A stretch of DNA of 64,000 bases. It comes from a virus (taxonomy: Duplodnaviria; Caudoviricetes). Location of the stretch: positions 32,442 through 96,441 of IMG/VR virus record IMGVR_UViG_3300032038_000040; one strand, written 5' to 3'. The position numbers and the translations under genes were made by a program. Below the pieces are notes generated by a model. It had not been told where the DNA came from. It made no database searches and saw nothing but the letters and a program-made list of their open reading frames with translations. Below are positions 10,931 to 38,982 of the stretch, one piece after another (within the stretch, counting starts at the first letter, position 1; every line of letters begins with the position of its first letter).

Positions 10931-10933
10931 ATT

Positions 10934-11745: not shown

Positions 11746-11746
11746 A

Positions 11747-12475: not shown

Positions 12476-12477
12476 AA

Positions 12478-12627: not shown

Positions 12628-12629
12628 TT

Positions 12630-13341: not shown

Positions 13342-13344
13342 AAT

Positions 13345-13376
13345 AAATATAGGAGGAAGAATCCTCCTATATTTTT
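13345..13376. terminator. Bidirectional intrinsic terminator between the convergent arms
   Basis: AAATATAGGAGGA-AGAA-TCCTCCTATATTT perfect 13-bp stem with A/T tracts on both sides. Confidence 0.85.
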
Positions 13377-13379
13377 ATT

Positions 13380-16300
13380 TTAATTATATTTGTTATTGAA
13401 AATTGTAAATACGTTGTCCTGATTTTCAAAGTCTATTGTCTTTTCAATTCCTGACCACCAAGGAATAGTGTATGTTTTAATACCATATAAATATTTATCC
13501 ATACCTTTGTATTTTCCTTTAGATACTTTATCCCCAATATCTCCTACTCCTAAAATAGGGTATAGTAAGGCGTTAACAGTAGAAATGGCTGCAACAGGCT
13601 GGTTAATCATGGTCTTAATTTCCTGCCAAGCTCCAAGCACACTAGTTAATTTGGCATCCATAGTCAATCTCTATAATTGATACCTCGCCATTCTTGTCCA
13701 CCAATCATCATTCTTTTTTGGTCCTCCAAACAATGAAGAAAGTCCCATTAATCCGAATATCATAACTTGCTCTGCCCAGAATTTCCTTCTATTTCCAAGC
13801 ATCCTTTTTCTTTCCTCTTCTGTCTTAGCATCTTTTATTTTTACAAAGTCCTCTACTTGAATTCCAGCAAGAGTTTTAATATAATTTGTATAATATTTAA
13901 ACATCTCATACTGAAATCCTTTTTCCCACATTTTGGTAGATGCACTCCAATGTTCTTTTCTGAATCTATTGGAATACATTTCCACCATCCACTATCTAAA
14001 CTACATTGCTGCCCTTCCTGTCATCTTTTGTGCTATAAGACCTTTATCTTCTTTGTTCATAGATCCATGCAAGTTCTAATTGCATTCTCTTATTTGACCT
14101 TTGAGAGTGGTAATATAACCTTCCATAGTCACAGGTATTCTTCCATCCTTATCTACTGTCACTCCATTCTTTATCCTCAATTCATAATTTCCATCTTTCT
14201 CTACTCTTTCAAATATAGAATCTCTTGTGCCTAAGACTGGAACTTTCTTTCCATTGTAATACACTTTGGCATTATGCAGCATTGCCAACATTACATGAGT
14301 ATGAAAAAAGTACTCTCCAGTAGAGTATCCAAACAGTGAATTAAAAGAACTCAGTATTCTTCTAGAAACACTCTTATAATATCTTTTTCTGTTACTCTTC
14401 TCAAAAGAATCCTAGCATGGGTCAAACAATTCTACCAATAAGTTCATAGTACTTCTCTAATCATTTGTAATCCAATCCAAGAAGTTACTTCTACTTGTAA
14501 ACCTGTTATTGGCAGCCATCTTTCCTAGTGCCCAGACATAATCTTTTAAATTAAAGAATCTTCCTCCCATAGCTTCCAATATTGTCTGATACTCTCCAAC
14601 AATACCGTTATTTATCCAGCCTTTCATATTAGCTGCAAGTCTTGACTATGTAGTATATTTTAGTAAGAAATCTCCTACTCTTGCTGGAAGTCCCGTGTCT
14701 TTTTTCTCAACACCATATAATCCCTTTTCCATATAGCCATCAAGAATTGCAAGCAAGTCCTCTTTCTTAGCTATATCTGCAAGTTGTTTTGCAACTACTC
14801 CTGCTTGAGATTCTGATACTTCTACTTCATTATTCTTAGTAGGAACAAATGATTTCTCTTCAATATAAATCTGTAACATTTCCATAATAGACTTGACATC
14901 ATTAAGCTGATTATAATTAGTTGCTGTACCTGCAAGTAATTCCATTCCTGCGGAAAAATCTTTTAGTAATTCAGCTTGGTTACTTAATTTCCTCATATAA
15001 AATACAGGAATATCTCTCTGCTTAGATCCTTTACTTGTTCCTTGTGCAACTTTATAGTCTTCTCCTTCGATACTTAAAGCATTCTGAACATAATCAGTGT
15101 CATCTTCTTTTATTTTAAAAGGCTTCATTTTTTCCTTTAACACATTCCATGTATCTCTGGCAGAAAGTCTTCCTTTTACACAGTCACCCAATACATCTAA
15201 AGTGCTGTTTCTAACCTAAGGAGGAAGATAATGGTTCTGTGCATAGGTAGGTAATAAAGTTCCCAGTTCTCCCTTAATCTACATCATTGTATTATAATAT
15301 TCCAATTGTGCCTAAGTGAGATTTGCCATTTCATTTCCCTGCCTGTAGTTTCGATTTGGAACTCTTTCTGTTCTTTGAGACACCTAATCTACAACTCTTT
15401 CTACAGTATTTGCATCTTCCCAGCTTCTTAGTGCTTGTTGAAATTCAATTCCTTGAAGACCTGCATTTTTTAATGCATATATTTTCTTATTTCTGGCTTT
15501 ATTATATTTAATCCAATCAATATCAGAAATAATATAGCCATAGGAATTATACATAAATCTAGAATCAGAACCTGAATTTAATAATTTCCTGTTGGCTCTT
15601 GCAATTCGTCTTGATATTCCTGCCTTTATTAAATCCCTTTTGTCTCTGGCATCCTATAGCACAGTGCCCATCAATGCAAATAAAGGCTGAGTTGACCTTC
15701 CCATAGAATATAACATCTCTAATGTAGTTCCTTTGTTTTGCAAATCAAGCAAGTCAGTAATTGCTAATCCATTTGGAGTTTCTGGACCCATAATTTCAAA
15801 CAATAAATCAACTACAGCCTATTCTCCCAAACTTCCCTCTCCATCCAAAAGCTACACTCTAAGATTAGCCATCTTATCTCGCAATTTCTTAGCAACATCC
15901 TACAATACAGTTCTGTCTTGAGGAGTAATATTAACTTCTATTGTATCTAAAGTATCCAAATTACAAAGAGCCTCAACAGTAATAGAATAATTATTTATCA
16001 TATTATTTATAGTATTAAATACTTCAGCCCTCTGCTTTATATATTCCATCATATTACCATTATTAGTTATACCTCTCATAAGACTGTCTGCAATATTAAA
16101 CATTCCATCCAGTTCTCCTAAGACATCTAATAATGCTGTATAATGCTATTGTTGCTGAATTTTATTCTGTAAATCTATTATTTTATCTTCTATGGCTTTC
16201 AGTTGATTTCTCTGCCCATATTTTTTCAAATTATTTAATTGTCTCTGCAATCCAAGAATAATATTGTCTGCAGCATCTGTGAGAGATGTCACCCTGTTTC

Positions 16301-17240
16301 CTATCAGTCTTGCTTCTCTTCCACTTAATCCTGCCTTTCTTGCTATTTCATCCCATTTCTTTTGTATAGGTAAATTATCTGAATTCTGTATAATTGTATC
16401 ATACTGTTGTTCAAGAGTTCTTCTTAACTGATATACATTCAAAGGATAATTTTTACATAGGTCTATAGTATTTTCTATAAACTGCATAGTTGCAGGGCTT
16501 ACAGTATTATTACTGTAGGCATCAAACACTTTTGTAGCAACATCTTCCAGTGTTCCCCATCTATTTAGCATATTCTATACTTGGGCAGTAGATTCTCCCA
16601 TAGTAAGCAATGCTCTCAGCTCTTCTTTTGTTAGATTTGAGTTCTGTTTATTTTTTAATATATCCAAAAAATTAAGGAAAGCAGAAAAATGCATAGGATT
16701 AGCAGTACTTCGCATAAAATCAAAGTTATCTATGTTTATTCCGGCATTCTAAAATTCCTAAGAAAGCTAATCCCAAATCTATTTTTGTGTTTCTAGTTCC
16801 TCTTTATATAAAATATTATCCTTGTTTATATCTGTAGTTATTATAGTAAAGTCATCACCTCTTGGAACTATTTTAGCTATTCTTCCTTTGTGTTGAGCAT
16901 TAAAAGTTATAGCTTCATCCATAGCCTCTTTGAAATCTGTATATACTTTCTAATTTCCTGTATTTGGATCTATTCCTGCTACTGATTTAGACCTTATATC
17001 ATTGGCAATATCTGCCACATGAAGGAAATTATACACATCTTTTGCCTGATGCTCCCCCTATTTATTTCTTTTAATGGGGTTTGTAGGATGATTTTCCATT
17101 AAGTCACCTATATTCTTAGCTACATATGTGGCATACACATAATTAGCCAAGTAATTATTCTTGCATATCTTATGCAGATTTTTATATAATTTACTATATT
17201 CCCCATTTGGGGCTAATGGTATTGTACATGATGCTGCCAT
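13380..17240 (-). CDS. Large virion cargo protein (~1286 aa, TAG=Gln)
   Basis: Seven track fragments share one frame and break at TAG; ATG 17240, TAA 13380; syntenic with the last giant gene of the crAss RNAP cluster. Confidence 0.8.
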
Positions 17241-17255: not shown

Positions 17256-20200
17256 TTAACAATATTCTATTGCTGAAGTATCTATATCACTTGTATCTAT
17301 AACATCATCTCCAGTTATTTCTTGTAAGATATTTTGCATTTCATCTTTTATTTTTTGCTCCTGTTGTGCTGGAGTTAAACCAGAGTTTTGAGCCTAGTTA
17401 GGGAATAGTTCTTGTCTTAGGTTTCCATATACTTCTCCTAGTTCTGCAGTCTATGCCTGTATTTGAGCCTGCTGTTGTGTTTCTGCATAATCTGCATCAA
17501 CAACTTCTACGTCTACTTCCATTCCATCAACTACATCTATATCTACAGGAACTGACTCATAGCCATCAGCAACTTCTACATCTATTTCCTAACCATCTAC
17601 GACATCTACATTTTCAACTTCTGCTTCCTAAGCAACTTCAACGTCAGTAACAGCTTCTACTCCTTCACTATTCTCTTTAGATTTAGACAATTCTTCTTTT
17701 CTTTTCTCAGCTCTTTTTTCTGCTAATGTCATATCATTAAGTTTCTTTCCAATTTCAAAATATTCTCCCTCATTTCCTAACAAGGAAGATATTCTCCATT
17801 TTCCATACTCATCTTTTACAAGTAGCTTCTCAACATCATTCTCTTTCACTCTGATTGCAATTGTAGCATCGTCTACAATGCCATCTTCACCTAGAAGAGG
17901 TTCACCACTGGAAAGTAGAACTGATACTGTACCGTCTTCTTTGTGCTGGATTCTGCAATTCTCATATAATTGAGCTGACCTTGGATTATTTCTTATGTAG
18001 TCTACCATACAAGAATATTTTTCTGCTTCTCCCATAAGAATTGGATTAAGGTATGTCTAAGCATAATTACCCATTTGAGCTTTTACAGAAATAGGACACA
18101 AAGAAAGGAAAGTATAAGGACTGAATTTAGTTCCTGTTTTGTAGCAGTTATATAAAAATAACTTGGCTGACAATTCAGGATTAGCTTGATGTAAGTCTTC
18201 CCAAGCTGCAGAAAGCATATTTTTAAGTTTCTTGTCAACCCCAAGAGATTGTATCTGCAAATAAATATGTCCTTTCCTATTGGCAGTTAAGCTTATGGAT
18301 TTCAGCAGTAGATTATCTTTAAGTTCCTCAGGCAAATTCTGTCTTATATTCATGAACTCTGATGGGAATTCATCAATAAAATACTCAAGTCCCATATTTT
18401 GTGGTATCCCATACTTAGCTTTTACAGACTGTTCTCCATGAGAAGCAAAGAATAAATAAGACAAATAGAAATCAGAAAATGCCTAAAGCTTCTTTTCTCT
18501 TTCTACTATTCCTAGATCTTCTGCCATAGAGAGAAAATTAAAGCTATTTGTAGGGAATCTTGTAAATATATCCCTAGCTATGTGATATGCCTAATAGAAT
18601 TCTCTTAATACAGGATGGTCATCAAATACCCTATCTAAAGTAACTTTGTCTTTTCCTATATACAGACTACCTCCCTGCTCAGGGAAGGCATTGGAAATCT
18701 TATGCCCATTAATGATAGTATTTGTTATCTATGGGCCTACAGCACTAGTGATAGAATTTAATCTGGATACTGATGTAGTGCCCTTTATTTTATTCAATAA
18801 GAGCATAAACTTACTTAAGGCACTAAGAGTCTTAAATTCTCTGACATCATCATAATTTTTTATTCCATCAATCAACTCTTCTTGTGTAATATCAGACATC
18901 CAAAGAGCATTTTCTTCATTTACTCCTAAGTTCTTTTTTAATTCTTCTATTCTTTCAGATACAGTGCTGTCAAATGTTGCCCAGCCCTCCTTTAATTGTT
19001 TCTTATTGTATTTATTAATTATGTCAGTTATTGCTTTCTAAGATAAAAACAGGGATGCTAATTCAAAAGACATTCCACATCTTATAAGAGCTGTAAGTAT
19101 TGGTGCAGTCTGATTATTAATATTCATCAAATTAAGTACAGGGTCCTTTACAGCATCTGCAGCACTTGCAACCAAACTTCCAAGTATTTTACCAATCAAT
19201 TCTCCCTTTTTATTAAATTGAGCATCCAAATTTAAGAATGCACCAAATTTAAAATCTCCAAGAGAGAATCCCTATAGATTATTCATTGGAAGAGTGTCTG
19301 CCACTTTGACTCCTATCTAATTACCTTCAAACACTGAATGTGCTGTTTTCTATACTGCAAACATTCCTAATATGGCTCCAGCCACAACATTTTGCTTATA
19401 GAATTTCTGGTTAGTGCCAAAGAACAGAAGATTCTCTGATTTCTAAGCAAGGTCTGCAAGCTATCCAATTTCCATTTTTTCTAGTACTTCAAAAGGAATG
19501 TTTGTATTTCTTGCTGCCTCTACCAAATATCCCATCTTCTTCTATGCATCGAATCCTCCAGGATTTAATACCTGGTTTGCCTGAGTTTCGTGTGTCATAA
19601 GACCATAGGACATATTAAATAAAGTGTTGTTTCTTCCTGCAACTCCTTCAGATTCTTCTTTGTAAGAATATGCCAATTTCTAATATTCCTAAGCAATAAC
19701 ACTATGTATTTTGCTTCCTTTTGGCACTTCCAAGGTTTCCATATACCTGTCTATGATATTAGAAATACCTTCCTTCTGCTGGTCAGTCAAATTAGAGTAT
19801 CTGTTGAAGACATTCTCTTTTAATTTATTTGTATCAACAGCATTAACCTCAGTTTTAAACTCTTTCAGCATCACATAGAATTTATCTATATCAAAATCTG
19901 AACCTGTAAGTGTAGTAATATCATTAGGAAGAACAATCAAATCTCCTGAAATTTCTGGAGTAAATCCAACTATTTTCAATGGAGCCACAGAATATTTAGC
20001 CTCAGTAGGAATTCTATATCCCAACATCTTCAACATTTCTGGATTAGCCTGTTCTATGGCTTTAATATCCACTTCTCCCTTTTCATTCATGAATGGAGCA
20101 AATAGTTTTTTGCTATATACAGGAGCAAAGCACTCATAATAAGCAATACCAGCCTGGTTCTCTTGTATATATTCCTTGTAAGTCTGCTTTTTAGCAAGTC

Positions 20201-23200
20201 TGATAACAGCATCTTCATTTATTACTACATATTCAGTATTGTCTGCCCACATGGTTCCCTTATCAAGGATTATAACATCAGCATTAGTTCCTTTTCCATT
20301 TAAAGTATAGTCTCTCATGTCTTTAAACCGTACTACTTTTGCATCCTTCTTTATTTTATATGCACTAACTTTAGCATAATCTCCTGTATAATGACGATTT
20401 CTTTGGGTTACAACCTCGCCATTTCTCATGAAAGTTTCATCTGACTTATCTGTTCTGGCTTTAGCATAATCTTCAGCTTCTTCCTTAGATGATGTGAAAT
20501 ACAGTGCTCCTTTTAATGAATCATCATAATCTATAGCAGTATGTCCTACAGTCTCACTCAAGTTTTCTGCTTCTCTATCTTCTGTAAGAGCGTACCCTCT
20601 GTACATTACAACGTCTTTTCCATTACCATCTTTAAGAGCCTCTTTTTGATTTGCACTTTCCTTTTCATATTCAGCTTTTGTAAGGAGAGTACCTCCGTCT
20701 TTACTCTTAAACACAATGTTTAATTCAGTGCTAAATCCAAAGTTAGATGCCTGTACAAGAGGACCACCAGCTATTTTTTGTTTATTTATTCTATTTTTTA
20801 TAATTGAATACAATAGCTGTTCTACTCTTTTACTTTGAATAGGATCTGACAAAGGAAAATTAAAATTACCATATTCATCGAGAGACACTGCATCCAAAAG
20901 CTCTATTCCATATCTAGGAGAATTAATTATCTCTTCTCTTAGTAAGTTTGCTATCCTTATATTTTGTTCCTGTTCACTTCCATCAAGTCTCAGTTCTGTT
21001 CTTAATATATTTACACTTTCAGATATATTCTCGGCTACAATATTCTCAAATTCTTTTTTATATTCTCTTGCACTGAGAGACCTTGTTTCTCCTGTTCTTG
21101 AATCATAAAAGTCATATTTAGCCTCACTGCCATCAATATTTGTATATGCTAAGTCAGAATTAAGCACATATCTTACCTATGAACCAAATAATTGTGCATG
21201 GTCTTTAAAGTGATCAGGAATTTCCTGCTGAATAGAATAATCTTCAAATGGAATCTCGAACACATAATCTGAATTATATCCTTTATTTGCATCTCCTATT
21301 ATGGCCATCATATGTTGATAGGCAGCTTCTTCACTATCAAACTTAGACAGATCTATAGTTTTCATTTTTCCTACCTTCACAGCAGATTCAAACTGAATGG
21401 TATCTATACCTTTCTTTTTATTTATTTTTGCTGTATCTTCCATCACCCTAAATAAGGCTCTTAGAAGATTAGGTCTTGATGTGGAATGTCCTTGAAGCAT
21501 AGCATCTGCCATCATTATCAGATATTCAGAGTTCTTGTTTTGCACTCCAATTTTAAGATTTGTTATTGGTGCATCTACTTGAGAACTTTTAAATACTTGA
21601 GAATATACGAATGGCTTAAGAGGTTGAAACGCTTTCTGTATATCAGAAGCATTCCATTCTCCCTACATTATCTTTTCATATGTCCTTTCTGCCTATTCAG
21701 ACCATTTACCAAACATGAGGGCTTTCTTTCTATATGCAGTTGGAGAAGAGAAACCCTAGGCATCAGCCACATTGATATTCCAAAATAATCCTCCATTATC
21801 TTTTATAGAGCCATCTTCATTGTAAGTTCTAGGTCTTACTAGGCTGTTTTTAAGCTATTCATATCCAGCTCTTTCCTAATCACTTTTAGATTCTGCAATC
21901 TTCTTGTCAAAGACTTCCGCAATGTTATCACAAATGTTCGATACAAAGTCTTCTATGTCTTTAAGATAAAATGTTCTCTAGATTCCATCAGATACTCTTT
22001 CTCCTTTAAAGTCAGTAGCCAATACATTAGGTCTGAGTCCAGGAGCATGAATTTCAGCAAGTCTCTTCTGCAAATCCACAGCATTTTTATACATTGCAGG
22101 ATCAGTAATTGTAAGTTCAAGGATATTAGCAGAAGCATAAACATCATTCCAAAGGAATTCCCTCAAGTTTCCCTCTAAGTTACTACTATCTAAGCCCTTT
22201 ATATTATTCATATTCTCTAAAAGACCTGAACTCTTCCAATTTTCGATAGTCTCCGTAACTCTGGCATCTATATTATCTATAATAGATTGCCGCAACAATG
22301 TCACAAGTTCCGATGTATCCCAAATATCTAGGACTTCACCATCTTCTGCAAGACTTATTTGCTTATCAAGCAACTTTCCAAGCTCTGTGCCATTTTCTCT
22401 TTCTGTCTGCAAGAAATCAAGCATTACAAACTTCCTACCATTTTTTTCATAGTTACTTATGGCTGCAACCTGTTTTCCTTCCAGTGCTCTTAAATTAAAT
22501 GTAGCTATTCTTGCTATCTCTTGTCTGGCTATTTTCATAAATCCATCTACAATAGCAGCTTTGGCAGTAGACTCTGTTCCTGCGGAGAAATCTCCCTAAA
22601 AGCGTTTAAATTTAATAAATTCAAAAGATGGTTTATTACTTAGCATTGGAATCTTATAGAAAGCCTCATCAACAGCACTTTTCAAACTCCTGTCAGTAAA
22701 ATATTGAGCAAGGGCAGCCAAGACATACTATTCTGGAAGCATATCTTTCATATAGTTTTTTCCATCAAAACTAAGTTGTACAATATGATCAAATTTCTAT
22801 TTCCTTTGTTCTGGAGTCATATTTGCCAACCATTCCAAAATTTCTATGTTCCACTCTTCAGTGTCCTAATTTTTGAACCATTCTGATTGACCATATTCTT
22901 CCTCAATAAATTTATTGAATTCCTCTTCAGTACTGTTTGCAATTTTTTGTACTAATTTAGTCATATAAGATGGAGTCACATACTCCTAATATGTCTTTCC
23001 ATTATCATAAGTGACATTATCTCTTGTTAAACCAAGAGAATCTTGGAATGGCTTAATGAAACTTATGACATTTCCAGCAATTCCCTTTTTATAGTCCGTA
23101 ATATCATATGTGGAATTATTCTTATTTGCATTTAAATTCTTTAATATATATTGTAGAGATGACCTTATAGAAGTAATATCCTAAGAACTGAGAGTCTTTT

Positions 23201-26200
23201 CTTCAATAGCAGACTAAGGAATCTCATACCCAAGATATTTACTTATTTCCCTGATGGTATTAAATACTTCAACCTGATTAAAGTCTGATATTTGCTTGTT
23301 GTCTTTGTCTGTTACCTGAGTTCTTAACTGGTCACTAAGTTTATTTAACTGATCTAAGGAAGTCAAATTAATTTTTCCGTTGCTCAGTATAGGATGAGTT
23401 CCAAGTAGTTGCAATGCTTGCAACTGTCCTTTTACTTCTTTATTAAGAGGATTAGTATTTGCAGGTATAGACTTGAGAACACCCTTTTCCTTAATTACAA
23501 TAGTATAATTCTAATGATGCTTACATATTGTAGTAAAGAACTGACTCTAAAATACCGCATTTGGATTTTCTTTGCCATTTACTATTGTCAATTTTTCTAC
23601 TAAGGGCTTTAACCAAGGATTATTCTCTACTTGTGCCTGCAATTTCTACAACATATCCTTATAAGAAATCATTCCCTATGTCCAATTGACTATTTTATTT
23701 ATTGCTTCTGTGGCATCTTTTCTCTTTCTTATTCCATATTCATCTGTTCTATATATAGGATTTCCCTCAGTATCAAAATCAGTAATATCAAAGAGCTTGT
23801 GCATTTCCCTTTTTACTTCCTAAGAAGCACTTAAAATATCCTGTGTCCTGCTCTCTGTCTGCCAATGCTCTTGCATATTTCCCTCAGTTTCTCTTAAAGC
23901 ATCATCATCCTAAGAATTCTCATCTCTCTGAGAACCCTCAGTAGCTTTGGACATTTCTGATGTGCTCAAGAAAGTGAATCCCTCGAGTTCAAATATTTCA
24001 TCTGCAGCTAAAGTCATAAGTCCGCCAAAGTTTTCTGAGAATACTTCTGCTTTAGTTACAGTATCGTCCTCCAGGTTCTCATTTACTTCAAAATCCAACT
24101 ATTCATTTTCTACAAAAAGTTCTGCATTAGCTAATTTAATGAGATTGTCAGCTCCAATATAATTCACTGTCTGCAATCTGGACATTCCTTTTAGTTTCTC
24201 AATTTCTTTTCCTTTTTTATCTTCTGCAATTTCTTTACCAAAATTATCAAAAATAGCTTCAGGATGCTCTTGATAATAAGTTATCATATCACTTATCTTT
24301 GTAGCTACAGACTATGCTACCTCTCTTATTTCCTAAGAAGGTATATGTATTCTACCATTGTTTTTTATAGCTTGAATTTGCTTTATGCCTCTTTCTACAG
24401 AAGACTCTTTCTTTTCTCTTTTTGTTTGTTTATTAGTTTCAGTATTTTCTTGTGTTGAAGGAGTAATAACTTCAGATTGTTTGGCTTCCATTGATTCTGG
24501 AGTCAATCCATATTGCAGGGCATTATTCTTTTGCTCTACATCCATTCTATAAATTTCTTCTTTCAAAGAAGATAATTTTTCTTGTAGATATTTATATGCT
24601 TCCGAATTTTTTACCAGCCCCTTTCCTAAATCACTAATTGGAAGAGCTATTTTCAATCCTGCTCTAGCCATTTCCAGAGCTCTGTTAATAGCATTATCTA
24701 CGGACAATTTAATATCATTAACATTCTAAGATGATGTATCTATGAAAAGCTGATTTGCTAAAGAACTTTGTTCACTGCCCTCCAATATATAAACTGTTTT
24801 TGGATTCTCCTATATAGTTCTCGTTGTTGGATTTTCAATAAATTCTACTCCAACATTCTTAAATTCCTAAGGAATTAAAGAAGGGTCTGTACGTTTGAGT
24901 ACTTCCAATGCCTCTGCAGGAGTCAAAGGATTTTGTCTATCTCCAGACATGAAGTTGTATTCTTCCTTTTCAGCCAGTGCTTCCGGAGCATTAGGGAACT
25001 AATCAGTAACCCAAACTCCACCACCTTCAAAATAAGGCTGTAATAATGCAGAGGCTGCCTCTCTTAATTCTTGTTCCTACAATTCAAGAGATGCCATAGC
25101 ATGAGTACTTCCCCAAATAGAGCCATTAATTCTCTCATATTCAGAAACAGCATCTGTTAAATCCATTTCCTCGTTACAAACCTTATTATATAGCTCAGGA
25201 CTAACATCACTCAATCTCAATGCAAGCTCATATTCATAGGCTTCTGCTTCTTTTTGTGCTTCCTACCACTCTTCTTTTTGTGATTCTGAATAGGAATTCT
25301 ACATTTCCCTTATTCCTTCTTCTATAACCTCTTGGTTTATGGTTACTATACCATTATTAATAGAAACTGCGTCCTAAGAGAAACCTAAATTCTATATCAC
25401 ATCCAACAGAACATCCTAAGCAAGCTTGTAATCAGCTACTACTTCAGCATTCTCTTCTCTTTTTAGCTTCTTAAGCCAATAATTGCCATGATAAGAATGT
25501 AAAATATATTCACCTCCTTCTGACTAGATACTATTAACACGATTGAATTTAAATCTGGTATTCATTAAGAAATCAATCACTTCTGTGCTGTTATTGAACA
25601 GTCTTGGAGTCACACTGTCAACACTTATAATCTTATTTCCTCTATAAGCATTGTATGAATCCCGCTGTTCTTGTATCTTTGCCTGCTAGGTCTTAATATC
25701 TATTACATTATTAATCTGCTTTAATACTCCTTCAAAGACACTGCCTTGTATGTCAATACCAAAATATTTGTTGAAAAATTTAGCAAAGGCATTAACAATC
25801 TTATCCCATACAGACTATTTATTGTCGGGATCTTTAATTTGTGCCAATTCTTTTTGGAATTCTATATTACTGGCAGCTTCAGATAAGAACTCATGTAGGT
25901 TACTCATTCCATAGAATGACGCTGCTCTCTATCCTAATGCAGTCTTGGATAAATCATATAATCTAGAAACTTCATTATAGAAATCAGACTCTTCTTTGGA
26001 CAGGGTGTCGGGAGCTTCCTCTCCACGATCTATTATATCAATACTAAAGGTGTGCAGGCATTCATGCAGCAACATATTTGTAAGTTCCCTGACTGTGCTT
26101 CCCTGAACCATTAAAGGATTAATTCTAATCACTCCATTATTAGCATCTGCAAGAGGAACAAATGAAGTTTTGGTTCCATCAGCTCTCATATGTTCTATTC

Positions 26201-29200
26201 TCTATAATGCCACAGCTTTTATTACAGGAAATGCCCCTCTCTTCTAGTATGAATCTAATATAGCTTCAAACAGGGTTGTTCTAGGCCCTGTCTATGTGCT
26301 CAAGTAATCAGAAAGCTGTTTCCATAGCCTGTTATTAAGTTGGAATGGAAAAGCTCTTTGCGGAAATCCAGAGGCCACTACCCAACCTTTTACTTTGGCA
26401 TCATAATACATTCTACAAGCATTCTTGCCTAATAGATTTCTTCCTTTCTATAAATAGTCATATGCAGAAGAGAAGTCTTTAAATAATTTTGGTCTGGAGA
26501 AATGCTTTCTGAACATATCTAATTGACCTGGAGACATAGGATTATTTTCTGGAATAGAAGGAAGGTCGTCAAGACTTTCTTCTAAATCACTTATAGATCT
26601 CTTTATCATTTCCTCTGCATTAGGAAGAACTTCTTCAGGAGTTTTCTCCATAGCTTCCTTGTCTTCCTATTCTACCATATCTTCATCTGCAAGGTCTTCA
26701 CTTTGAGATTCCTCTCCTCTTAATGCAGTATAATAGTCATTAATGTCCATTGCCTAGGCCTGCAAAGTAGAATATGTTAAACTCTCTGCTTGTTCTAAGG
26801 CATTTTTATCTACTTCTCTGTTAGTAATTCCCTTCAAGAAATCTATGATGCTATGCCATATTTCCTGTAACATCGACTTAAATTCCTTATTATTCATAGG
26901 AGGAACATTTTCCAATAACTCCCTAAGAGAATCATTTGTAAAGACCTCAGCCAAGAATTCTATAGCATCAGTAAATCCATATACAGGTGCTGGTGATGAT
27001 GGTGATGTAGGAAACAATACAGATGAATCTAATCCACTTTCTTCTATGTAGTCTCTTACATGATCCATGAATCTGTTAATATAATCAGCAAATTCTTTTC
27101 CTTCTTCAGTAGCAGAAGAAAGCTGATATAAGGTTCCTGCATGAATCATTTCATGCATAATTGTATTACAATCTGCTTGATTAGAAATCCAGATTTCATT
27201 CTTATAAGCATAGTACTAGGCAGGAACTAAATTTCCATTATCTGATTTTATTTCATTTCCACCAATACGAATTTTTACATCTGGATTGGCTTTTTCTATT
27301 AAATCAAATAAAATTTTAAATTCACTATGCTCAGCAGTTACTTTATCTCTTACTTCCTAGAAAGTACCATCTCTTTGAGTAGTTTCATTTTTATATACTG
27401 CAAATAGTGGATTATTAACTAAATCTTTCTATGCCTAATTTAATTTTCTCTCTAACTTTGAATTATATTCGGAGTCATAGTTTATGTCATTGCTCCTTTC
27501 AGAAAATTCTCCTGTATTAGTAGTTGCAGACTTTATCTGGTTTGGATCTTTAGCTGCATACCATACTTGTCCATTACCAAAGTCATGAATCATGCCATCA
27601 TTTCCTGATTTCATTACTCCTTCAGCAGGATTCTTGACATTCAGGAATACTGGCATATTTATTTGACGGCTGCTTCCTTGGTAATTGGAGAAATAGAATC
27701 CTCTTCCAAACAACGCACTTCCTGTTAAACTTCCTATAAAGGACCTTAACTTTGAGAATTTCGTAAATTTATTATTTGTGTTGTGGTATACTACCAAAGG
27801 CTCTCCGTTCTCATCAACTATTTTAGAGACAGAATTATTTTGTGTTATTTCAGCAATAGCTTCTTTTAGAAGATTTCTTTTTTCAGCGATTTCCCCATTT
27901 ATAACTTCCTTAATAGGTACATTGCTATACTCATCTATATCTTCTAAATTCCTTCCTCTTGTAATGTCAGCAATGTGTAAAGCTATTAATACTTCAATAG
28001 CATCATTCACATTAAGATTTCTTTTGACAGCATCATTTACAATTCTCCTGGCATCTTCTGCTGTAAAAGATTTATCCTCTTCAAGGGTCATCATGTGATT
28101 AGCGATTGCAAATTTTGCAAGTCCACTAATCTTACCTTTAAATATCTTGTCAAGTATTTGTTCACTTTGAAAACCATGCTTATGACCCCCATGGAAAGGT
28201 TTGGCTATATCATGCAGTGCTGCAGCAACAATCAAACTTTGCTTGAGGTCTTCTGTAATGTCAGCTACTTGTGCAGACTTAACAACATTCTGAAGATGCT
28301 CTAATGTATTATTTTCTCCTATATGATGTTCTTTTCTTTCTCTTAAGGTTTTTCTACCTCTAGCAAATAAAGACTCGTCAGCATTTTTAAAATAGTTATC
28401 AGTAAGTTCCTCTAATTTTTCAAAGTTAATGCTACCACCTTCATTTAAAATTTCGAGTGTGTTCAGTTTGCTTTCTGCCAAAGATTCCCAATCACCAAAC
28501 CAGTTCTTGAATGCCTTTGTCCTTACCTGCAGCCATTGACGCTCTGTGAGATTTGTAGGCTTGCCATTAGGTGCTTTCATGAAAGTACCGTCAGCTATTG
28601 CCTGTTGTTTTATGGACTGCATTTCATTGTCATATCGAACTTGCATATCTCTAAAACGAGCCTCATTGGCATCAAGAATTTTTTCTATGGCAGACTCAGC
28701 ATCTCTAAGTAAAGTATTATTTGAGTTTATGTGCAACAAGTTCTTGAACCATTCTATCATTCTTTGAAATATATTGCCTTTTCTTGTTGATGGGAGTGCT
28801 CTCAATACTTCTCTAAATGCCTTTCTTCCCAAAAATTCAGCAACAAATTCATTAGCATCCTTTCCTGCATAACCCAAATCAATGCCATACTATACACCTA
28901 AACTTCTATAATCCTTGAATATCTACAACAAATCTCTTTTAGCTTCAAAATCAAGACCCTCCAATATATCTATAGTGAGTTCATGACCTATTTCGTGTAT
29001 TACAGTACTTTCAAAATTATTGATTGCGATGCTTCTATTTTTCCCCTACAGGGCAGTGCCATTTATTTCTATTTCTCCACTTCTTCTTCTATATCCTCTG
29101 GCACCCTCTCGTTTACCAGTATAAGTAATTTCTTTCTCTGCAATTTCTTTAATGTCTGAAATTCTATTAAGCAGAGATTTAGCCATCACTCTTATAGCCT

Positions 29201-31550
29201 TATCAGAGGATTTTTTGGATATATAAGTAAGAATATCTTTGATGTTTGCTTTGTTGTCAGGAAAATATTTTGACACATTAATATCAAAATACTTTTCTCC
29301 AAGCTTACTGTTCATGTAATCTTGGATTCTTTGAGCTACTTCCTGCTGTACATCCAAAGGCAGATTCCATTGATTTGCTCTTATTTTAGCCAAATCTCCA
29401 TGTAACTATTTTGTCAAAAGTCCAAATCTTTTAGACTTGGCTGAGCCTCTTTGTTTTTCTGGAACATACCAAGCGAAATCCCAAATATCTTTCTATCTTT
29501 GCCAGCGTACTTTCTTACTCATAGCGTTTTCTGCATTTGATATAAGATATTCGGAATCTCCTATTTTCTATTTCCTAAATCCATAAATATTAGGAGATTC
29601 TCCAATAAAGAAATCCAATAATTTGCCTTTTACTCCATCATTTAAATATAGTTCTTGTTTGGATAATTGCATTCTTCCTATCTCATTTCCATTCTCATCT
29701 TTAATAATTTGGAAATCTTTTACTGTAGGATGACTTTCCAAAGTAAACTTTCTATCCATTGAGATGTATGTTTCGGTGGAATTCTTTCTATTATCTGTAT
29801 CTATAATAGTTCTTACGTGTTGAATATTAGGAAACAGGGAATGTAACTTTTCTTCCAGTTGTGCTTTAGTAGTTCCATTTTCAGTACTGAAGTCAATATC
29901 ATGTAATGGATTACTAGATGGACGATACACAGTTCCCTAAAGTCTTACTGCAGTACTCCCAGTTAAAGCTATTCCAGCATCTGATAATTTTTTTATTATT
30001 TCTGCCTCATATGGATTCTCTTTAAATGCCTGCTCTACATCTAAGAGTTCGGCTAGCTATGTTGAGTTGCCTTTAATTCTTGTTCCTCTTATTAAAGAAT
30101 AATCCTCTCTTCCAAGAGATTCTACTATATTTCTAACCAGTTGCTTTCTTTCATTTACTCTATTGCCATAAAACAATTTGCTGAAGAAGTCAGAAATAAC
30201 ATTCCAAATTCTTCTAGCTAAAGATGTTTTTCCAATTTCTCCTGTATATGCATTTCTCCATTCTGTTGCTATTTGTTTTCCTATAGAACGAAAGGCTTGA
30301 TCTTTTCCAGGGAATCTATTCATGATGTCTGCAAGAGAAACCTTTTTCCTACCTACTAATTTGGCTACTCCAATAGGCAAAGTAAATATTTTATCTTGAG
30401 GATTTTGAATCATTTTTTCAAGAGCACTTTCTGGAATAATGAAATCCAATCCTTTCATCTGCTCATGAATAAGCCACTTTCTCATTGCTGGATTAAATTG
30501 CATCATAAAAGCAATAGCATATCCAACCCCATCAGTAATTTCTGAGGCATTTCTTGTAGTTATGGCTCTATGTAAAGCATCAAAAAGAGGAACATTGCCA
30601 TTATAACTGGCTGCTTCCTAATGAGTCATTCCAAAAGACTCGAGAAAACTATTGATACTTTCATCTAAAGTAGTTAGTCTATTAGGGAGAGGCTATTTAA
30701 AAGAGGAATCTGTCAATAGCTTGTCTGCCAAGTGTTCTTTTGATGAAAGTTGAATTTTTTCAGCATCATTTTGAGTTGCGTTTATTTTTTCTCTTGTCTG
30801 TTCATGATACTGAATATTATCATATTTATTTATTCTGCTCTCCTCAGTAGTTCTTCTATTTGTTTCTTTTGCACTTTCATTGTATATTATTACATCGGCA
30901 CTTTCCAAGAAAGAACTATTCGCAGTTATGACAGTTTTACCTTGCTTAACTAGTTTCTATATTTCCTCCCTGTATTTTTTCCCAAACTCTTTCTTCTACT
31001 ATGCAGACAAAGTATTAAAGAAAAATCCAGCAGTATCTCTTGATACTCCCAAAACTTTTCCTAAAATAACATCAGAATCTATCACATTTACATTATCTGC
31101 AATTGTGGTTTTTCCTGTTCCAGCTTCTGCATAAATTAATTTTCCTTTGTACTCTTGTTTTAAAGGAGTGGCATTAAAGGTTTTTAAGTTTCCATCAGAA
31201 TCTTTCATAACAGGAGTACTGACAGAGCATTCATATCTTCCATCAGGCAATTCTTTTTTATTTATTGATTCTGGATTAAAGAATCTCCCTGCGTCTGCTA
31301 TATAATCATTTGGATTATCTACTATTACCGGATCACTATATTTATTCCACCAAAGTTGCATTTGTGCATCAGAGGTTATTACATTATCCTCACTATGAAG
31401 GTGGTCTCTAATCCAATCATCACTAGCAAATTCATCAGTATTATTCTAATTTTGATACTAGTGCTGTAAATTTCTTAAATGTCCAGAACTAATATTCAGT
31501 CTTTTTGCCTATTCTTTGAATTCTGTGTTATGTATATTTACGCAACTCAT
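17256..31550 (-). CDS. Giant virion RNA polymerase fused to polyvalent domains (~4764 aa, TAG=Gln)
   Basis: 19 track fragments in one frame, all checked to end in TAG; GYRIP...GSDFDIDK catalytic motif (DFDID 19884-19898); ATG 31550 (MSCVN), TAA 17256. Confidence 0.88.
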
Positions 31551-31565: not shown

Positions 31566-34500
31566 TTAGAAACATTCATTTAACTAATTAAAGAAATCCT
31601 CCACATCATCAAATTCCAAACTTATTCCTTTTTCTGCAAGGAATGCCTTCTTATCTGCAAATGTCTTGCCTAATGAAGATATACTGCCATCTTTTGGAAT
31701 CCAGCCTTTCTCTTTAGCCATCTCTACTAACTTATCCTTATAAGCAGAACTCTTCATTATTCCTGCAAAGGTAGTTATTTTTTTCGATTTATCCAAATCA
31801 GATAGTTTGATTTTTCCTGTTTCATTTGGATTGGAACTCTTCTTTTCTTTCACCTCTTCTTTCTAGGCTTTCTCTGCTTGTTCCTTTTCTTTCTCTGCAG
31901 ACGTTGTTTCTGTTGCATTGGTACTTGAAGGAGATACTCCAAACATATTCATAAGAGATATTTCTTCTGAAGTTGCCTGATTTAAATCTATATCTTCAGT
32001 TTCAATGGCTTCAACTTCCTATATGCCAGATTGCTATTCAGCAGCTTCTTTTTGTTTTTTCTATTTTTCTAATTCCTGTTCCGCATTCTGTCTTCTTTCT
32101 TGCTCCATTCTTTCTTTTACTCTCTCATTGATTAGCTGATTAGTAATCTCTTGACTTGCCATATATACCTTACCATCTCTTGCTTCTGCCCAAACTATAG
32201 GATTAGTAGCATCATTTTTTATAATGTAATACTTATATTGTGCATCAGTAAAATCAGGAGTCAGCTGATTCTCTCTTATATACATACTGCACTGGATATG
32301 TCCTTTAGTCTCAGCATCTGTAACAGGTTTATAAGACTCGTCATACAACACTCCATCTATTTCTCTATATACCTTTCCTTCAATTATTGTTGACTTAGTA
32401 TACTTTTGTTGGGTCCTTCCAAAATCTCCAGAAGTATCATTAGATTTTCCCTATGACCAAGTAGTATTTTCTACAGCTATTATGTTGCCTTGAGCATCAC
32501 ATTGATACACTGAGTATAAAATTCCAGAGGTCGCTAATTTAGCCGCATCTGTCTACATTGCTCCTGCCTCACTGTACATCCTTATTAATGATGGTGACTA
32601 AAAGATTGCCTCGGTAATATTAATTCTTGGGTTAAGTTCAGTGAGCTATTTCATTATTTGACTTCTGTCATATCCTCTATTTAACCATATTGGATCTGAT
32701 TTTACACCATTTTTTATTATGGTAATGCATGGAGCATCAGGAGTTCCTATAAGAATGTTCTCACTTTCTCCAAAATAGAATCTTTGTACAAGTTCTGTAA
32801 TAGCCGCTTTTCTTGTTTCATAATCAGGATTTATTAATTTATGAAACAACTAGTCCAACTCCTGTTTTAGTTTACTGCCTTCTTTTAAGGAAGAATACCT
32901 GCAAGGGTCAATTCTTATAGGTATATACATTCCATTAAGAGTAGGAATATATATAAATGCAGCACCTAAGTTACCATCAACATCTTTAGGGTCATATCTT
33001 CTTTCCTAAGGAACATTTGATTTAACTTCATCATTAAATTGAATTCCCCACTTTAAATTTCCTAGAGATATTCCATGAGGATTTCTCACTCCTCTTTTAC
33101 CATCAGCAAGTTCTGCGACAGACCTTTTTGATGTTTCTGCATCAGATATTAGCTGATGAGTGATATATCCATTGGTAGCTGAAGCCACAGTGGTTTTGAA
33201 AGTTGGTGATACATAGGCAGATAATTCAGATGTTGGAGCTGTCTTACTAAAGAACTACTGTCTCTCATTCATTAGTATGGATTTAGTCTGATTATAGTTA
33301 CTTCTCTAAGCAAGAGTACCCATACTGAATCCTAATGTTCCAACAACTAAATATCTCTTTCCTCCACATTCAACAGTTCCATGCTCTCCACCATGAATTC
33401 TCTTCACCTTATCTGTCAATTCCACTACATTAAGTATTGTGGAAGAGGCGAATGCATTTCCTGCAGGCAACATTGCAAACTATATTCTGACTCCTGTCTT
33501 TAATATATCAGCTAACTCGTTGTCTACAGTGTCTTGTATACTACCCTCTTTATCTTTATACAAAAGCTCATTAAATGCCATGTACTGAGAGAATAAATCT
33601 CTCTCATTTCTTCCTTTCTTTCTAACCTGTCTGGCTTTTAGCCCAGATAAGTCATGTCTATGATACTCCACATAGTAATTTCCAGCAAGCAGTCCAGGAT
33701 TTCTACTATTATCTGTTTCCACAGATGTATTATCCTCATTAATTTCGTGAGAGTCATCTACCGAATCAACATTCTCCTCTTTCCCTTTATCTCTTTCTGA
33801 CAATGTTGGAGTAACAGCCATGCCATTCTCATCTACAGTAATTTCAGATGTTACCATAGCATCCTTATTAACAGGCTTCTCACCTTCAATTTCAGATGTG
33901 TCTATTACTTCATTCTCTTCAGGAGTTTCAACATCACTGGTATCAATAACTTCTTCCTCAGTACTGGCAACATCATCAGAAGATATGCCTTCTTCACCTT
34001 CCTGACTTTCTACATCAGTAGATTCTATTGGTGTTTCTCCTTCAGCACTTTCTACATCATTGTTTTCTATAGGAGTCTCATCAACTGGAGCTATGTCATC
34101 AACATTTACTTCATTAACATCAGAAGTATAATCCACTGTCCATCCAGAAGTATCTACAGCTTCATTTTCTCCTGTTTCCACATCCTCAGAAGTCACTCCC
34201 TCAATATCATCCAATGGATCTATAGTCCCATTTTCCAAGTTAATAACCTCATTATCTATAGTTAATGTTGCCGCTTTTTGATTTCCATTGTCTTTTGGAG
34301 CAACAATTTCTCCTGCCCTGACTCTTAATTTTTGTTGCTAATCTTGAGAGCTTACATATTCAGTATCTTGAGTTTCTCCCTACTGATTTTGCCAAGGATT
34401 ATCATACTTAATGCCCATTAATACAGGCTTTCCTTTTTCATCTCTTTTAAACTCAACTATAGTTCCATTTCCTTTATCTGTATGTACTCTGCCTCCATTA

Positions 34501-37500
34501 TGAAATCCTGACCATCCCCAGTAAGAACCGTCGTTTTTTACTTTTTTGACATTATCCTCTTTTCTTTTTTGTATTTTTGTGGCATCCCTAGTTAACTTAA
34601 GTTTTTCAGCCACTTCTGCTAACATTTTAAAGTCATCTTTAGCCTCAGAATTTGATTGCTAATCAATTAAATCTTCAAGAAGAGACATTACTTCTGCTGA
34701 TGATTCTGCATCTGCAAACTATCTTTGCATGGCTTCTATATATACATTACGCTTCTCCTCTGTCATATTTGGCAGCATATCAAGAGCAACTCCCAATATT
34801 CTTTCCGTATTGAAAGTTTCCCTCAAATCATTCAGTGGATGCTACTCAATAGGGATTCCTAATTCTTCTGCATCTTCTTTTACAAAGGTATTAAATTCAG
34901 AAACAGAAAGTTTATCTGTGCCTACAGAAGCTTTGGCATATTCTTTCATTCTATTGATATGCTCCTATGAAGTCAAGTCTCCGCCTGAAGGATCTTTACC
35001 TAAAGCCATGAAAGTATCCCTCACATCAGACCTTCTTATGTCTTTATATATCCTTGTTAAGTCAGCAAATTTTCTATCAGATATTCTCTCTACATACTCA
35101 GCATATTGCTCTGGATTATCATATATTTTTTCAAGAGCCTTCTGATTCATTTCTATTCTCTCGTTTATTTCTGCAGCATCATCAACTGTTTTCAACAGGT
35201 CTGGATTTTTCTGCTTTAATAATCTTCGAGCTTTGTCTATTTCTTGTCTCTGCTATTCACTATAATTTCGTTTTGCTGACTCATCTAACATTTTACTCCT
35301 TTGAAAAGGATTCAGATTTAAAATCTACTATGCAGACAGCACTTGTCCTAAATCACCTGACTCACCATCATTTTCAAGGAATTTCACCTCATCTTCAAAG
35401 TGTTTTACAGTTTCCTTTTTTGTTTCAATCTGCAAAGCCAAAGCCTGTATTGCTTTTCTTAGTGTCTTTTTTCTTTTTATTGATGAGGCACTATCAAAGT
35501 GATGATTAAGTCTTTTATCTTTATTCTCAAGTTCCTCTAATTCCTTTTTTTCTCTTTCTAGATTTTCCTGAGCTATTTTAACCATCCTGTCTTTACCCTC
35601 TTGAGTAGAATATTCTGCGGCTAGTTCTCTCTAGGTATTTACATTCTCATTTCCACTGATTTCAGTTTCCATCTATGCCAGCCTTTCTTTCCAATTAGCA
35701 TCCATAACAAGATTATAGAGAATTTGAATCTTTTCTTTTTCTCCTTTATTTGCTAATTGTTTACTAGACTCTATTTTAGCTTTGACTTCATTAAATGTCT
35801 ACTGCATTTTCTGAAGCCTTTCAGCATTTTTTAGAATTGTTTCTCTGGCTATCTACTATTGTTCTTCCTCTGTTTTTCCATCCTTTATTTCCTGATTCTC
35901 GTGTAAAAAGCTGGAAATCATTTCCTGAGATATATTACCAGTAGCTAATTCACTTATTTGTTGTATGGCTCTCTAAACAAGAGGATTATTTGCCATTACC
36001 TCATTTTGAGATGCTATATCTAGAAAGTTAATTAAAGAGAAGACTGCTGCCTCTTTTTTATCTTTTGATTCTAATGTTGAAATGTCCTTATCTGCAAGTC
36101 TGTTATAATTCATTATAAGTTCAGCTATGCCATCCAAATCATCTTTGTGCTTAACCATCACTTTATTGATGTCTTCCAGCAAATCATCAGCCGCCCTTAC
36201 TTCAGAAACAGCATTTTGGTAAGAAGCGATAACTGGAAGAGTTAACCAAGTATTAACTTTTTCATACCATTTGGCTTTCTTTCCAGTATCAACATATTCT
36301 TTTTTTTCTGCATCCCACTTGCTCAGTCCATAATATTCTTTTGTTTTGTTTCTTGCATCTTTACTATTGACCATAGGACCAAAAGCACCTCCTCCTGCTC
36401 CCAACATAAAGGCAATAAGGGATTGTTTTGCAAACCATTTCTAATTACTTTCAGACACTGCACCCTAAACTCCAGAAAGAAAATCACTGGATATTTGATG
36501 ATGACCCAATACTGTGCCTTCCGGGTCATATTTTCTAGCCAAGTAGTTATTATAATCTCCAAGACCAAATCCAACAGTTAATCCTGTTGTGACCTCATCT
36601 AAGTAGTTAGATTGTCCTGAACTCCATACAGGAACAATTATTCCTTTTGCTTTATGCCATCTGGCAGCTGACTTTGAAAGAGTGGCAGCTCCAGTTTCAG
36701 TATTATATTCAGCTCCTTTTGCTGCAAGCTTTTCTGCGGTATTTCTTGATAAATACTGCTATGATGAAGGACTTAACATGTATTTTCTGAGTGTTGCAGT
36801 AGCTCCAGCATATCTAAGTAATTCTATTATGTTGTCAGATAGAAAAGTAGCATTGGCACTTTCTTTCAGATGTTCAAAATCTTCACTGTATTTTCCATAA
36901 TCATCTATATTCCCATCTTCGTCAAATGTAATTCCAGCTTCTTTGAGGAACTCTTGCTTCAAGGCAGTATTATAATCATTTTTTATTGCCTGTACAGCCT
37001 GATTTTTATCATATCCTTTTTCTAAGTAAGGTTTCAACTGTGCATCAGAAGCAATCATGAAATTATTATTTCCCTTGCCCTCTTTTGCATCTTTAGATTG
37101 GGAAGGTAAACTAGAATGTTCTTCAGCCCATTTTGTGGCATCAGCATCTATCAGTTTTTCCAAATCTGCCTTTCCTCTGTCCATCACCTCATGGTATGCA
37201 CCATAAGAATATGAGAATGCTATAGGCATAGCATTGTTAGTTACTTCCAAAGTAGCAGTAAGACCCTTTGGAAGCCTCATTGCTTTACCTACACCTCCTG
37301 TAGCTTGTGCCAATAAATACTACGCAATGACGAACTTGGTCATTTCCATCATTTCTCCAAAGTTCTTCATTGTTAGTACACCCTATTCATCTTTAGCAGA
37401 GTAAATTGGATTATAAGGTGATAGTCCACCATGTTTATCTGAAAGTTTTATTTCATCTGTATCATAAGTATTATATTGTTCTACCTTTTGCCAATATTGT

Positions 37501-38963
37501 GGATCTGCCAAAAAGCTATTTTCGGTCCCATCTCCAGAAGCATCTCTTCCATTCATCCATTCATAAAGACCTTTTTTCCCATATTTCGCCTCTACAGCAT
37601 AACTTTCCAAGTTCATTATGAAATTCATCAACTGTGCTTCAACACCAGTCTTTAATATTCTACTGAGATGCTGTTTTGCATTATGCATTGTTGGTACTCC
37701 ATTATCAAATTCTACTTTCCCGGCAATGTAATTCTTCATTATGGTTTCAGCTGCAGGCTATGCAGATATTTCTCCATAATTCTACACAACAGCTAGATAC
37801 TAAGAAAGCATAGTCAGTTTGTCTTCCATTGGTATGTTATCCAAATCAGCCTCATCTTTAAATCTCTTATAATGGTTTGTACCATTAAAGTTTTCTTCTT
37901 TAGTTGGAGTGCCCTCAAATTTAGAGAAGTCAAATATAGGATTTCCATTTTCATCTCTAGGAAGTTGAGATATACTATCTGGTTTCTCTGTAATATCATC
38001 CAAATCTTTTTCTTTCCCTTTGTTTTTATCATCTCCCTTGAAAACCTTATCCCACAAATCCATTAAATAGACATCATAATCCTTCTTAGTGCCATCAGGC
38101 AATTCCATTTGCAAGTTCTGACTCATGGCTGTTTGCCACATGCCTTTCATATTCTAAGCATCTGTGTCAGAATTGTCTATCTTATAGTCAGCATCTGCAG
38201 TTATAATATCTTGAATTTTCTTGCTTTTCTCTGCAATTTGTTTGTTAAATTCTTTTGCTTTTGCATCTTCTAATCTTGTGATTGTTTTTTCTTTGCCTGT
38301 TTTTGGGTCATAAATAGTTGTGGTGCCCAAAAGACTGGTGTTCTCTGGAGTGACTGCCTGTCCAGCAAATCCTGCAGTAAATCCACCTTCCTACTACTAT
38401 TTTTTAACAACATCTACAAGTCTTTTTTGAGAATCATACGCTTTTTGTACATTCTAATCAGCAGTTTGTTTTAGTTCTTCTTTATTAAGAACACCTTCTT
38501 CTAACATCTTTCTTTTTCCTTCTGGAGACAACAATAGTTGCAAATTAGGAAAATCATCATCTTTGTTGTAATAATTCTCAAACACTTTCACAGCTAGCAT
38601 ATCATTGAAAGTCTCACCAAGATGAGGAAGAATCTCAGGAGAATTTGTAACAAGAGCATTAAATGCATCTTTGCCAAATGTATTAACAAACTGTCTGTTT
38701 CTATGCCATACTACTTGCTGTTCAAATGGTACTGCATCAGGATTTTTACCTTCAGAACGCCACATTTCTTTCCATTTTTCCTATTCATCTTCCGATAAAT
38801 CAGTAAATGGTTTATAAGCAAAATTATTATAAAAGTTAAGGTTTTCTTTGGCTGAAGAGAGTCCCTTCAGCCCTTGTAAAGCATACAATCCAGTGTTATT
38901 ATTATATAATGCACGAGATGCAGTATGTGAAATACCCTATAACATATCTTTAAGTGTTCCCAT
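31566..38963 (-). CDS. Giant virion cargo protein (~2465 aa, TAG=Gln)
   Basis: 13 fragments in one frame; ATG 38963, TAA 31566; coiled-coil and acidic low-complexity segments. Confidence 0.8.
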
Positions 38964-38982
38964 AATCAATCGCTTTTATCTT

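Follow-up and report, generated by a model that had tools for sequence, protein, structure and literature searches.

crAss-like phages are the most abundant human gut viruses, and the proteins that they inject are almost entirely uncharacterised. The virion RNA polymerase (RNAP) gp66 travels in the particle and is moved into the host cell; some crAss-like phages have gp66 joined to neighbouring proteins in one very large polyprotein, which a zincin-like protease is thought to cleave (10.1101/2020.03.07.982082). Mass spectrometry has detected the RNAP-associated giants of crAss001 (the gp47/gp49/gp50 cargo) in virions, and a model has them extruded through the tail (PMC10172136), and the metallopeptidase hubs of polyvalent proteins have been proposed to free individual effectors (PMC5512222). 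Polyvalent proteins, their virion RNAP fusions and the crAss virion RNAP polyprotein are already known. Among bacterial toxins, MenT acts on tRNA 3' ends, and MenT enzymes prefer and block intact CCA ends (PMC7450476). Here we analyse a gene in a 64,000-nucleotide stretch of a gut crAss-like phage of the Caudoviricetes (positions 32,442 to 96,441 of IMG/VR record IMGVR_UViG_3300032038_000040; this whole stretch is the window below) whose predicted product carries a P-loop kinase-fold domain, a nucleotidyltransferase (NTase) and an HD phosphohydrolase domain ahead of a crAss-like virion RNAP. The original prediction, made for positions 27850-31150 (residues 134-1233 of the product), had taken the first three domains as a single module for modifying or repairing the ends of tRNA or other RNA.

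The gene is one open reading frame (ORF) of 4764 aa (17256..31550, minus strand, as are all of its features given below) when translated with table 15, containing 80 in-frame TAG codons and no in-frame TAA or TGA; read with table 11, the same strand breaks into fragments, the longest of 492 aa. Every string quoted in the original prediction is found in the table 15 translation, where IALTGSTAVRLQG supplies G531-S532, LHDIDF supplies D551 and D553, LLDFF supplies D646, and KKVRWQRQKDIWDF supplies K680, R685, K687, D688 and D691. Gln fills 19% of the cells at TAG columns of this ORF in standard-code homologues, against a background of 4%, and a tRNA with anticodon CTA is encoded in the phage record (96.4 kb, ~95% complete) outside the window. 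Because all of the minus-strand late genes from 13380 to ~62600 require TAG read-through, taken together with the Gln enrichment and the CTA tRNA, we conclude that TAG is recoded to Gln; the plus-strand genes at 1-13000 are open without it.

The front of this protein holds two independent cassettes split by a zincin-like domain (HEIGH at residue 852): a kinase, a helical domain that we call mid, and the NTase at residues ~129-715, followed by a WFGDWE element, the HD domain and an ADP-ribosyltransferase (ART) at residues ~966-1400. Taken as a whole, the region is best explained as the front of a polyvalent cargo protein in which separate effectors are fused to a crAss-like virion RNAP, and we consider this explanation reasonably probable.

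The kinase-mid-NTase cassette

The NTase domain spans residues 506-715 (29406..30035; core 527-694) and looks, from its structural model, like a Pol-beta-fold NTase most similar to DUF1814, yet outside that family by the family's own hidden Markov model (HMM). Its motif residues are G531-S532, H550-D551-x-D553, K643, D646, K680, R685, K687-D688 and D691. The hG[GS]...[DE]h[DE]h motif is present (L-T-G531-S532 ... H550-D551-I-D553-F), its GS being kept wherever that segment occurs, and the third carboxylate, D646 (K643-L-L-D646-F-F), lies in a predicted strand, 143-150 of the model. H550, D551, D553, K643, D646 and K680 are invariant in 13 diverse members of the family, and R543, R685 and K687 are nearly so. 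More distally, K680 is invariant and R685, K687, D688 and D691 are conserved with MenT1-like spacing; in this weakly modelled part, they may correspond to the Lys and Asp of DUF1814 motifs III/IV (MenT3 K189/D211; MenT1 K137/D149).

The model itself (residues 500-730) was built from a 3-sequence alignment, with a predicted template modelling score (pTM) of 0.72 and a mean predicted local distance difference test (pLDDT) of 71.6. Foldseek placed JHP933 first (E 3.5e-5), followed by TM1012, MenT1 and TglT/MenT3, and in a second structure comparison MenT3 and MenT1 occupied the top 11 rows. When a 13-member NTase profile was searched against Protein Data Bank (PDB) sequences, the two best matches were again JHP933 (E 0.15 and 0.37), not significant by themselves but consistent with the fold comparison; the two proteins align across the GS..R.SE..DLDF core, where the window side has a 4-residue insertion before the DxD. 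The AbiEii/MenT/DUF1814 assignment first proposed from motifs is thus borne out by its fold neighbours (MenT3/TglT, MenT1 and JHP933), the suggested Foldseek check having been run, but not by the family HMMs. Other searches added little: a BFVD fold search with the NTase gave generic viral NTase-fold proteins only, a word-indexed search with the NTase profile gave unannotated fragments only, a search for longer homologues gave none (406-2000 aa covered), and searching Pfam, NCBIfam and PDB with single sequences of the NTase, P-loop and mid pieces was uninformative.

Directly ahead of the NTase lies mid, an all-helical domain of ~215 aa (residues 291-505; 30036..30680) with an invariant IAFMMQ at 346-351. 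Its model is helical, with pLDDT 60-79. Searches of Pfam, NCBIfam and PDB sequences with mid returned no match, and the profile of the whole module likewise had 0 matches among PDB sequences.

The P-loop kinase-fold domain occupies residues ~129-284 (30699..31166) and carries a Walker A motif (AGTGKT, at residue 141; A-G-T-G146-K147-T148), D158-x-D160, D219 and a putative LID arginine, R239. Of 20 aligned sequences, 19 retain GK[ST] and the other is a fragment that does not include that segment; D158 and D160 are conserved in 18 of the 20, as is R239, and D219 is conserved too. D158 and D160 may be positional counterparts of D32/D34 of shikimate kinase (SK) or D35 of Pnk. A model of residues 129-284 built from the 20-sequence alignment has pLDDT 85-97, and the matches listed by two structure aligners, Foldseek among them, are overwhelmingly small P-loop kinases, with a compact core that can be superposed: shikimate kinase (score 8.8), archaeal adenylate kinase (8.5), the kinase of C. 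thermocellum Pnkp (7.7), gluconate kinase (7.1), chloramphenicol phosphotransferase (6.3), PSTK (6.2) and the Trl1 kinase (6.0). On this model and its motifs, the assignment to the P-loop kinase fold is sound, and in this respect the original prediction was right. No curated kinase HMM in Pfam or NCBIfam recognised the domain (the best match, AAA_29 at E 0.015, is under the cut-off), a scan of IMG/VR with the P-loop piece alone found no match, and a word-indexed homology search returned only the fragment from the window itself.

At E<=1e-3, a profile of the NTase searched against 1.84 billion representatives (clusters at 50% identity) recovered at least 339 cluster representatives, of which 116 also pass E<=1e-30; nearly all of the members are unnamed proteins of 2000-4900 aa on contigs of at most 114 kb. 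Co-occurrence was counted in the best 150 of the 339 matches, which were searched with pieces of the window protein and HMMs. By HMM, mid sits directly upstream of the NTase in 111 of these 150; the P-loop kinase is found in 21, always together with mid, and the HD domain in none. Among the 15 members that also carry an RNAP, 12 have the kinase. The whole cassette lies at the N-terminus of several RNAP giants (P0007, P0057, P0060, P0086, P0107 and L005), C-terminal of the RNAP core in P0082 (residues 1824-2375 of 4295 aa), and deep inside other giants (P0063, P0069, P0084 and L006). The differing positions in P0082 and L006 point to shuffling of the cassette between cargo proteins. In L006 (L006:1704-10565), the cassette is near the C-terminus (residues ~2100-2666), and the stretch fetched gave no RNAP match.

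This distribution separates what had been proposed as one unit. A co-evolving triad of kinase, NTase and HD is rejected, as the HD domain is absent from all 150 NTase carriers and the closest HD relatives are without kinase and NTase; the HD domain does not co-occur with the other two in related phages, and for HD this is a finding that the original prediction had itself named as refuting. A tie between the NTase and TAG recoding was also considered and is rejected. L001, L002, L005 and L006 carry the NTase in ORFs that can be read throughout with the standard code, so the suggestion that such an enzyme fits a phage that rewires the genetic code finds no support among its carriers.

The second cassette and the carrier protein

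The second cassette opens with an NGKPTNL...FKNWFGDWE element (residues 966-1040; 28431..28655; phrog_30335) that normally adjoins ART-PolyVal and, judged by sequence context, behaves as a leader for it. It is directly adjacent to the ART in several relatives (e.g. P0003, P0006, P0008 and P0028). As a side observation, this NGKPTNL..W.QVRTKAFKNWFGDWE element is the sole part of the region that is widely common to annotated phages, occurring in a crAss-like "RNAP-associated protein fused to zincin protease," in DarB-like antirestriction proteins of Pseudoalteromonas and Shewanella phages, and in Bacteroides phage BF1-TP2. The ART-PolyVal domain (residues 1236-1400; 27351..27845) matches PF18760 with 63.4 bits against a cut-off of 31.2.

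Between leader and ART lies the HD phosphohydrolase domain (residues 1041-1235; 27846..28430), with H1085, H1113-D1114, H1152 and D1195. Against the PF01966 cut-off of 22, it scores 24.7 bits as a domain alone and 20.3 within the whole protein; 3 of 3 relatives match PF01966 (best E 3.6e-8), and H1085, H1113-D1114 and D1195 are invariant, so that the HD domain was correctly called in the original prediction. Its likening to the HD domains of CCA-adding or RNA end-healing enzymes was not upheld, since a PDB profile search led no further than a "predicted HD superfamily hydrolase" of generic type (2pq7, a weak match at E 0.39), and no search returned anything more specific. The closest HD relatives, L003 (71% identical over residues 964-1288) and L004 (50% over 993-1360), both keep the WFGDWE-HD-ART order and are without the kinase, mid, the NTase and the first zincin. 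As WFGDWE directly abuts ART in several members, the HD domain here appears to be an insertion into an ART cassette.

The two cassettes are separated by zincin-like metallopeptidase 1 (residues 716-965; 28656..29405), homologues of which occur in P0007, P0086 and a Vibrio phage protein, and for which a role in cutting the protein may be drawn from work on related giants (PMC5512222; 10.1101/2020.03.07.982082). Two further zincin-like domains (25791..27350), with HEMIH at 1466 (SprT-like) and HECLH at 1829, have weak SprT-like Pfam matches and homology to L003. Behind the third zincin, a weak Cas2-like Pfam match (PF09827; 25656-25805, residues 1916-1965; E 0.0026, 18.3 bits against a cut-off of 23.8) is probably spurious.

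The virion RNAP core follows at residues ~2351-4560 (17871..24500). It carries the catalytic DFDID at residues 3885-3889 (nt 19884-19898) and matches gp66 of phi14:2 (PDB 6VR4) over ~470 residues at E 6.2e-23. The strings VVMYRGY and ALYFTSS are also present in the translation of the core at 20190-20650. One polypeptide thus combines several polyvalent hallmarks, namely a P-loop kinase, an NTase, an HD domain, ART-PolyVal, three HExxH domains and an RNAP. The gene stands in the late/structural block, which also contains genes for the major head protein (57436-58941) and a virion structural protein (44935-49506). The homology to gp66, the precedent of the crAss001 cargo proteins and this late-block location together suggest that virions carry the protein and bring it into the host. 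At its very start, an N-terminal segment (residues 1-130; 31161..31550) was detected in 8 of the 150 NTase relatives, always starting at or before residue 8 and in 7 of the 8 with a detected RNAP; a Pfam scan of the segment gave no match, and it may serve as a signal for packaging or ejection.

Around the gene, both flanking giant ORFs on the same strand (31566-38969, 2467 aa, and 13380-17240, 1286 aa) are TAG-recoded, and neither has a PHROG match at E<=1e-5. A similar ORF of 2507 aa lies directly upstream of the RNAP giant of L005, indicating that synteny is conserved. Recoding is specific to strand and module: in-frame TAGs occur in almost every late ORF of the minus strand, with 80, 44, 27 and 23 of them in the four giants. 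No tRNA genes were found in the 64-kb window; three minus-strand tRNA genes are clustered at bases 13225-13915 of the phage genome, for Met(CAT), Arg(TCT) and the CTA anticodon. ARAGORN labels the last of these "Pyl"; it is an amber suppressor that fits TAG=Gln in the late genes.

Proposed mechanism and rival explanations

We propose that the protein is probably packaged in the particle and ejected into a Bacteroidota-type host before or with the DNA, and that its own zincin-like domains would then cut it and release the pieces. The first cassette is a conserved, mobile block comprising a small P-loop kinase, a helical domain and an NTase whose catalytic set seems complete, with GS, DxD, a third Asp and a distal Lys/Asp. 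In the second, an HD phosphohydrolase has been inserted between the WFGDWE leader and the ADP-ribosyltransferase, ART-PolyVal. By analogy with MenT, the NTase may add nucleotides to RNA 3' ends as infection begins, with the acceptor ends of host tRNAs as its most plausible target; we offer this tentatively, as possible rather than probable. Most speculatively, such early action would shut down or re-programme host translation, mid might help the NTase to bind its substrate or keep it auto-inhibited, and the kinase might assist by acting on the substrate of the NTase or on its nucleotide donor. We find it doubtful, though conceivable, that phages have turned a toxin fold known from bacterial anti-phage defence (AbiEii) and toxin-antitoxin systems (MenT) into a virion-delivered weapon, a widespread cassette that would enter with the crAss-like virion RNAP, block host tRNA 3' ends by extension or otherwise within minutes, and so hand the phage control of host translation before its own genes are expressed.

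Several points weigh against a MenT-like enzyme acting on tRNA. The NTase model comes from 3 sequences, 2 of its 5 versions are poor, and the C-terminal K/D motif has a pLDDT of only ~50-65. PF08843 (cut-off 22.5 bits) was not matched by the window piece at E<=10, by the 13 members at E<=5 or by any other part of the phage genome; PADLOC and Pfam scans of those 13 members likewise turned up neither an AbiE nor any other NTase family. The NTase aligns solely to the N-terminal lobe of MenT3 (~30-218 of 288), without the C-terminal helical lobe. The small-molecule enzymes ANT(2''), TM1012 and LnuA stand just ~1-1.5 Z units below MenT, and the nearest structural neighbours of the kinase domain are mostly small-molecule or nucleotide kinases. 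Packaging, cleavage and all substrates are predictions for this phage, and the substrate need not be RNA.

These last two sets of structural neighbours make a small-molecule target a serious rival, in which the kinase, in the manner of chloramphenicol phosphotransferase or shikimate kinase, and the NTase, in that of ANT(2'') or LnuA, would phosphorylate and nucleotidylylate a small host molecule and thereby neutralise it at entry. This could be a nucleotide, a precursor of the cell envelope or a second messenger of a defence system. We nevertheless judge it unlikely: MenT3 and MenT1 hold all of the top 11 rows in the second structure comparison, the sole sequence-level signal is to JHP933, a member of the DUF1814 family, no candidate ligand is known, and a large conserved helical partner would be more typical of macromolecular substrates.

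The remaining explanations are less likely than a small-molecule target. RNA end-healing, the repair half of the original prediction, would have a PNK-like kinase, the NTase and an HD phosphoesterase restore tRNAs after cutting or trimming by defence RNases of the host such as anticodon nucleases. We think this quite unlikely; neither an Rnl2-type RNA ligase nor RtcB was found in the phage genome by searches whose controls worked.

Protein NMPylation, in which the NTase would put AMP or another nucleoside monophosphate (NMP) on a host protein such as a defence toxin, strikes us as very unlikely. MNT antitoxins NMPylate HEPN toxins, and the neighbouring ART-PolyVal domain, too, is of a kind that modifies proteins or nucleic acids. 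This activity was in fact predicted for the Pol-beta NTases of polyvalent proteins, but those form a different, minimal NTox45-like group limited to conjugative elements of Firmicutes (PMC5512222). MNT-type NTases are not among the listed structural neighbours of the window NTase, which is weak evidence against such a role.

Finally, we give hardly any credence to the fused kinase as a safety switch that holds the NTase off in the producing cell by phosphorylating its active site: small P-loop kinases of this fold class rarely phosphorylate proteins, the kinase accompanies just 21 of 150 NTases, and, although the window protein has Ser at 545-546 in an R-P-S-S aligned to R-F-S-E of JHP933, the position two before the DxD is hydrophobic in all members (L/F/A/I/M) and the JHP933-aligned alternative in R-P-x varies (S/D/A/K/H/V). 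Phosphorylation of MenT3 S78 or MenT1 T39, two residues before the DxD, does inactivate those toxins, but it is an auto-phosphorylation induced by antitoxins that have no kinase motifs (PMC11375011). The earlier statement that some NTases of this type are controlled by kinases is therefore outdated, and it does not suit this family, in which the phospho-acceptor is not conserved and most carriers have no kinase.

Comparison with described systems

We found no description in the literature of phage giants in which a MenT-like NTase is joined to such a helical domain and a P-loop kinase, and none of the Pfam, NCBIfam, annotated PHROG or PADLOC models recognises the kinase, mid or the NTase. Our analysis newly defines a large family of NTase domains, with at least 339 clusters when grouped at 50% identity, whose fold appears closest to the tRNA-blocking MenT toxins and which moves between giant phage proteins as a fixed unit with mid and often the kinase. 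The corrected boundaries, kinase-mid-NTase and WFGDWE-HD-ART, show which fragments to clone. Should the first cassette act on tRNA, this would be the first MenT/AbiEii-type activity on the phage side, delivered pre-made.

Among known NTases, the DUF1814 toxins (MenT1, MenT3/TglT, MenT4, AbiEii and JHP933) include the closest solved structures to the window NTase, which differs from them in matching neither the PF08843 nor the AbiE HMMs, in the 4-residue insertion before the DxD, and in not conserving the regulatory phospho-acceptor Ser/Thr (MenT3 S78, MenT1 T39). In place of their C-terminal helical lobe, it has a helical domain fused upstream. The known toxins belong to chromosomal toxin-antitoxin or abortive-infection pairs, whereas no separate cognate antitoxin gene (AbiEi/COG5340 or MenA type) lies upstream of the window NTase, which is internal to the 4764-aa ORF of a predicted injected phage protein. 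The kinase, for its part, resembles small P-loop kinases (shikimate, archaeal adenylate, Pnkp/T4 Pnk and gluconate kinases and chloramphenicol phosphotransferase) but stands outside their curated families and is always fused upstream of mid-NTase.

As a whole, the window protein shares with polyvalent proteins (PMC5512222) the form of a giant multi-effector polypeptide, zincin-like metallopeptidase hubs (three HExxH motifs here), ART-PolyVal, fusion to a virion RNAP and a late/structural location. The polyvalent survey reported Pol-beta NTases solely in conjugative-element proteins of Firmicutes, as minimal NTox45-like domains, in contrast to the larger MenT-like NTase in a phage giant seen here; its kinases were Ser/Thr/Tyr-kinase-like, whereas this one is a P-loop kinase; and its virion RNAP fusions were to N4-type enzymes, whereas here a crAss-type virion RNAP is found among phage giants (PMC5512222). 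Like gp66 of phi14:2, to which its C-terminal half is homologous down to the DFDID catalytic loop, the protein is flanked by giant ORFs in a late block. However, gp66 has 2180 residues and no effector train, whereas the window protein extends ~2300 residues further at its N-terminus and carries at least 8 additional domains.

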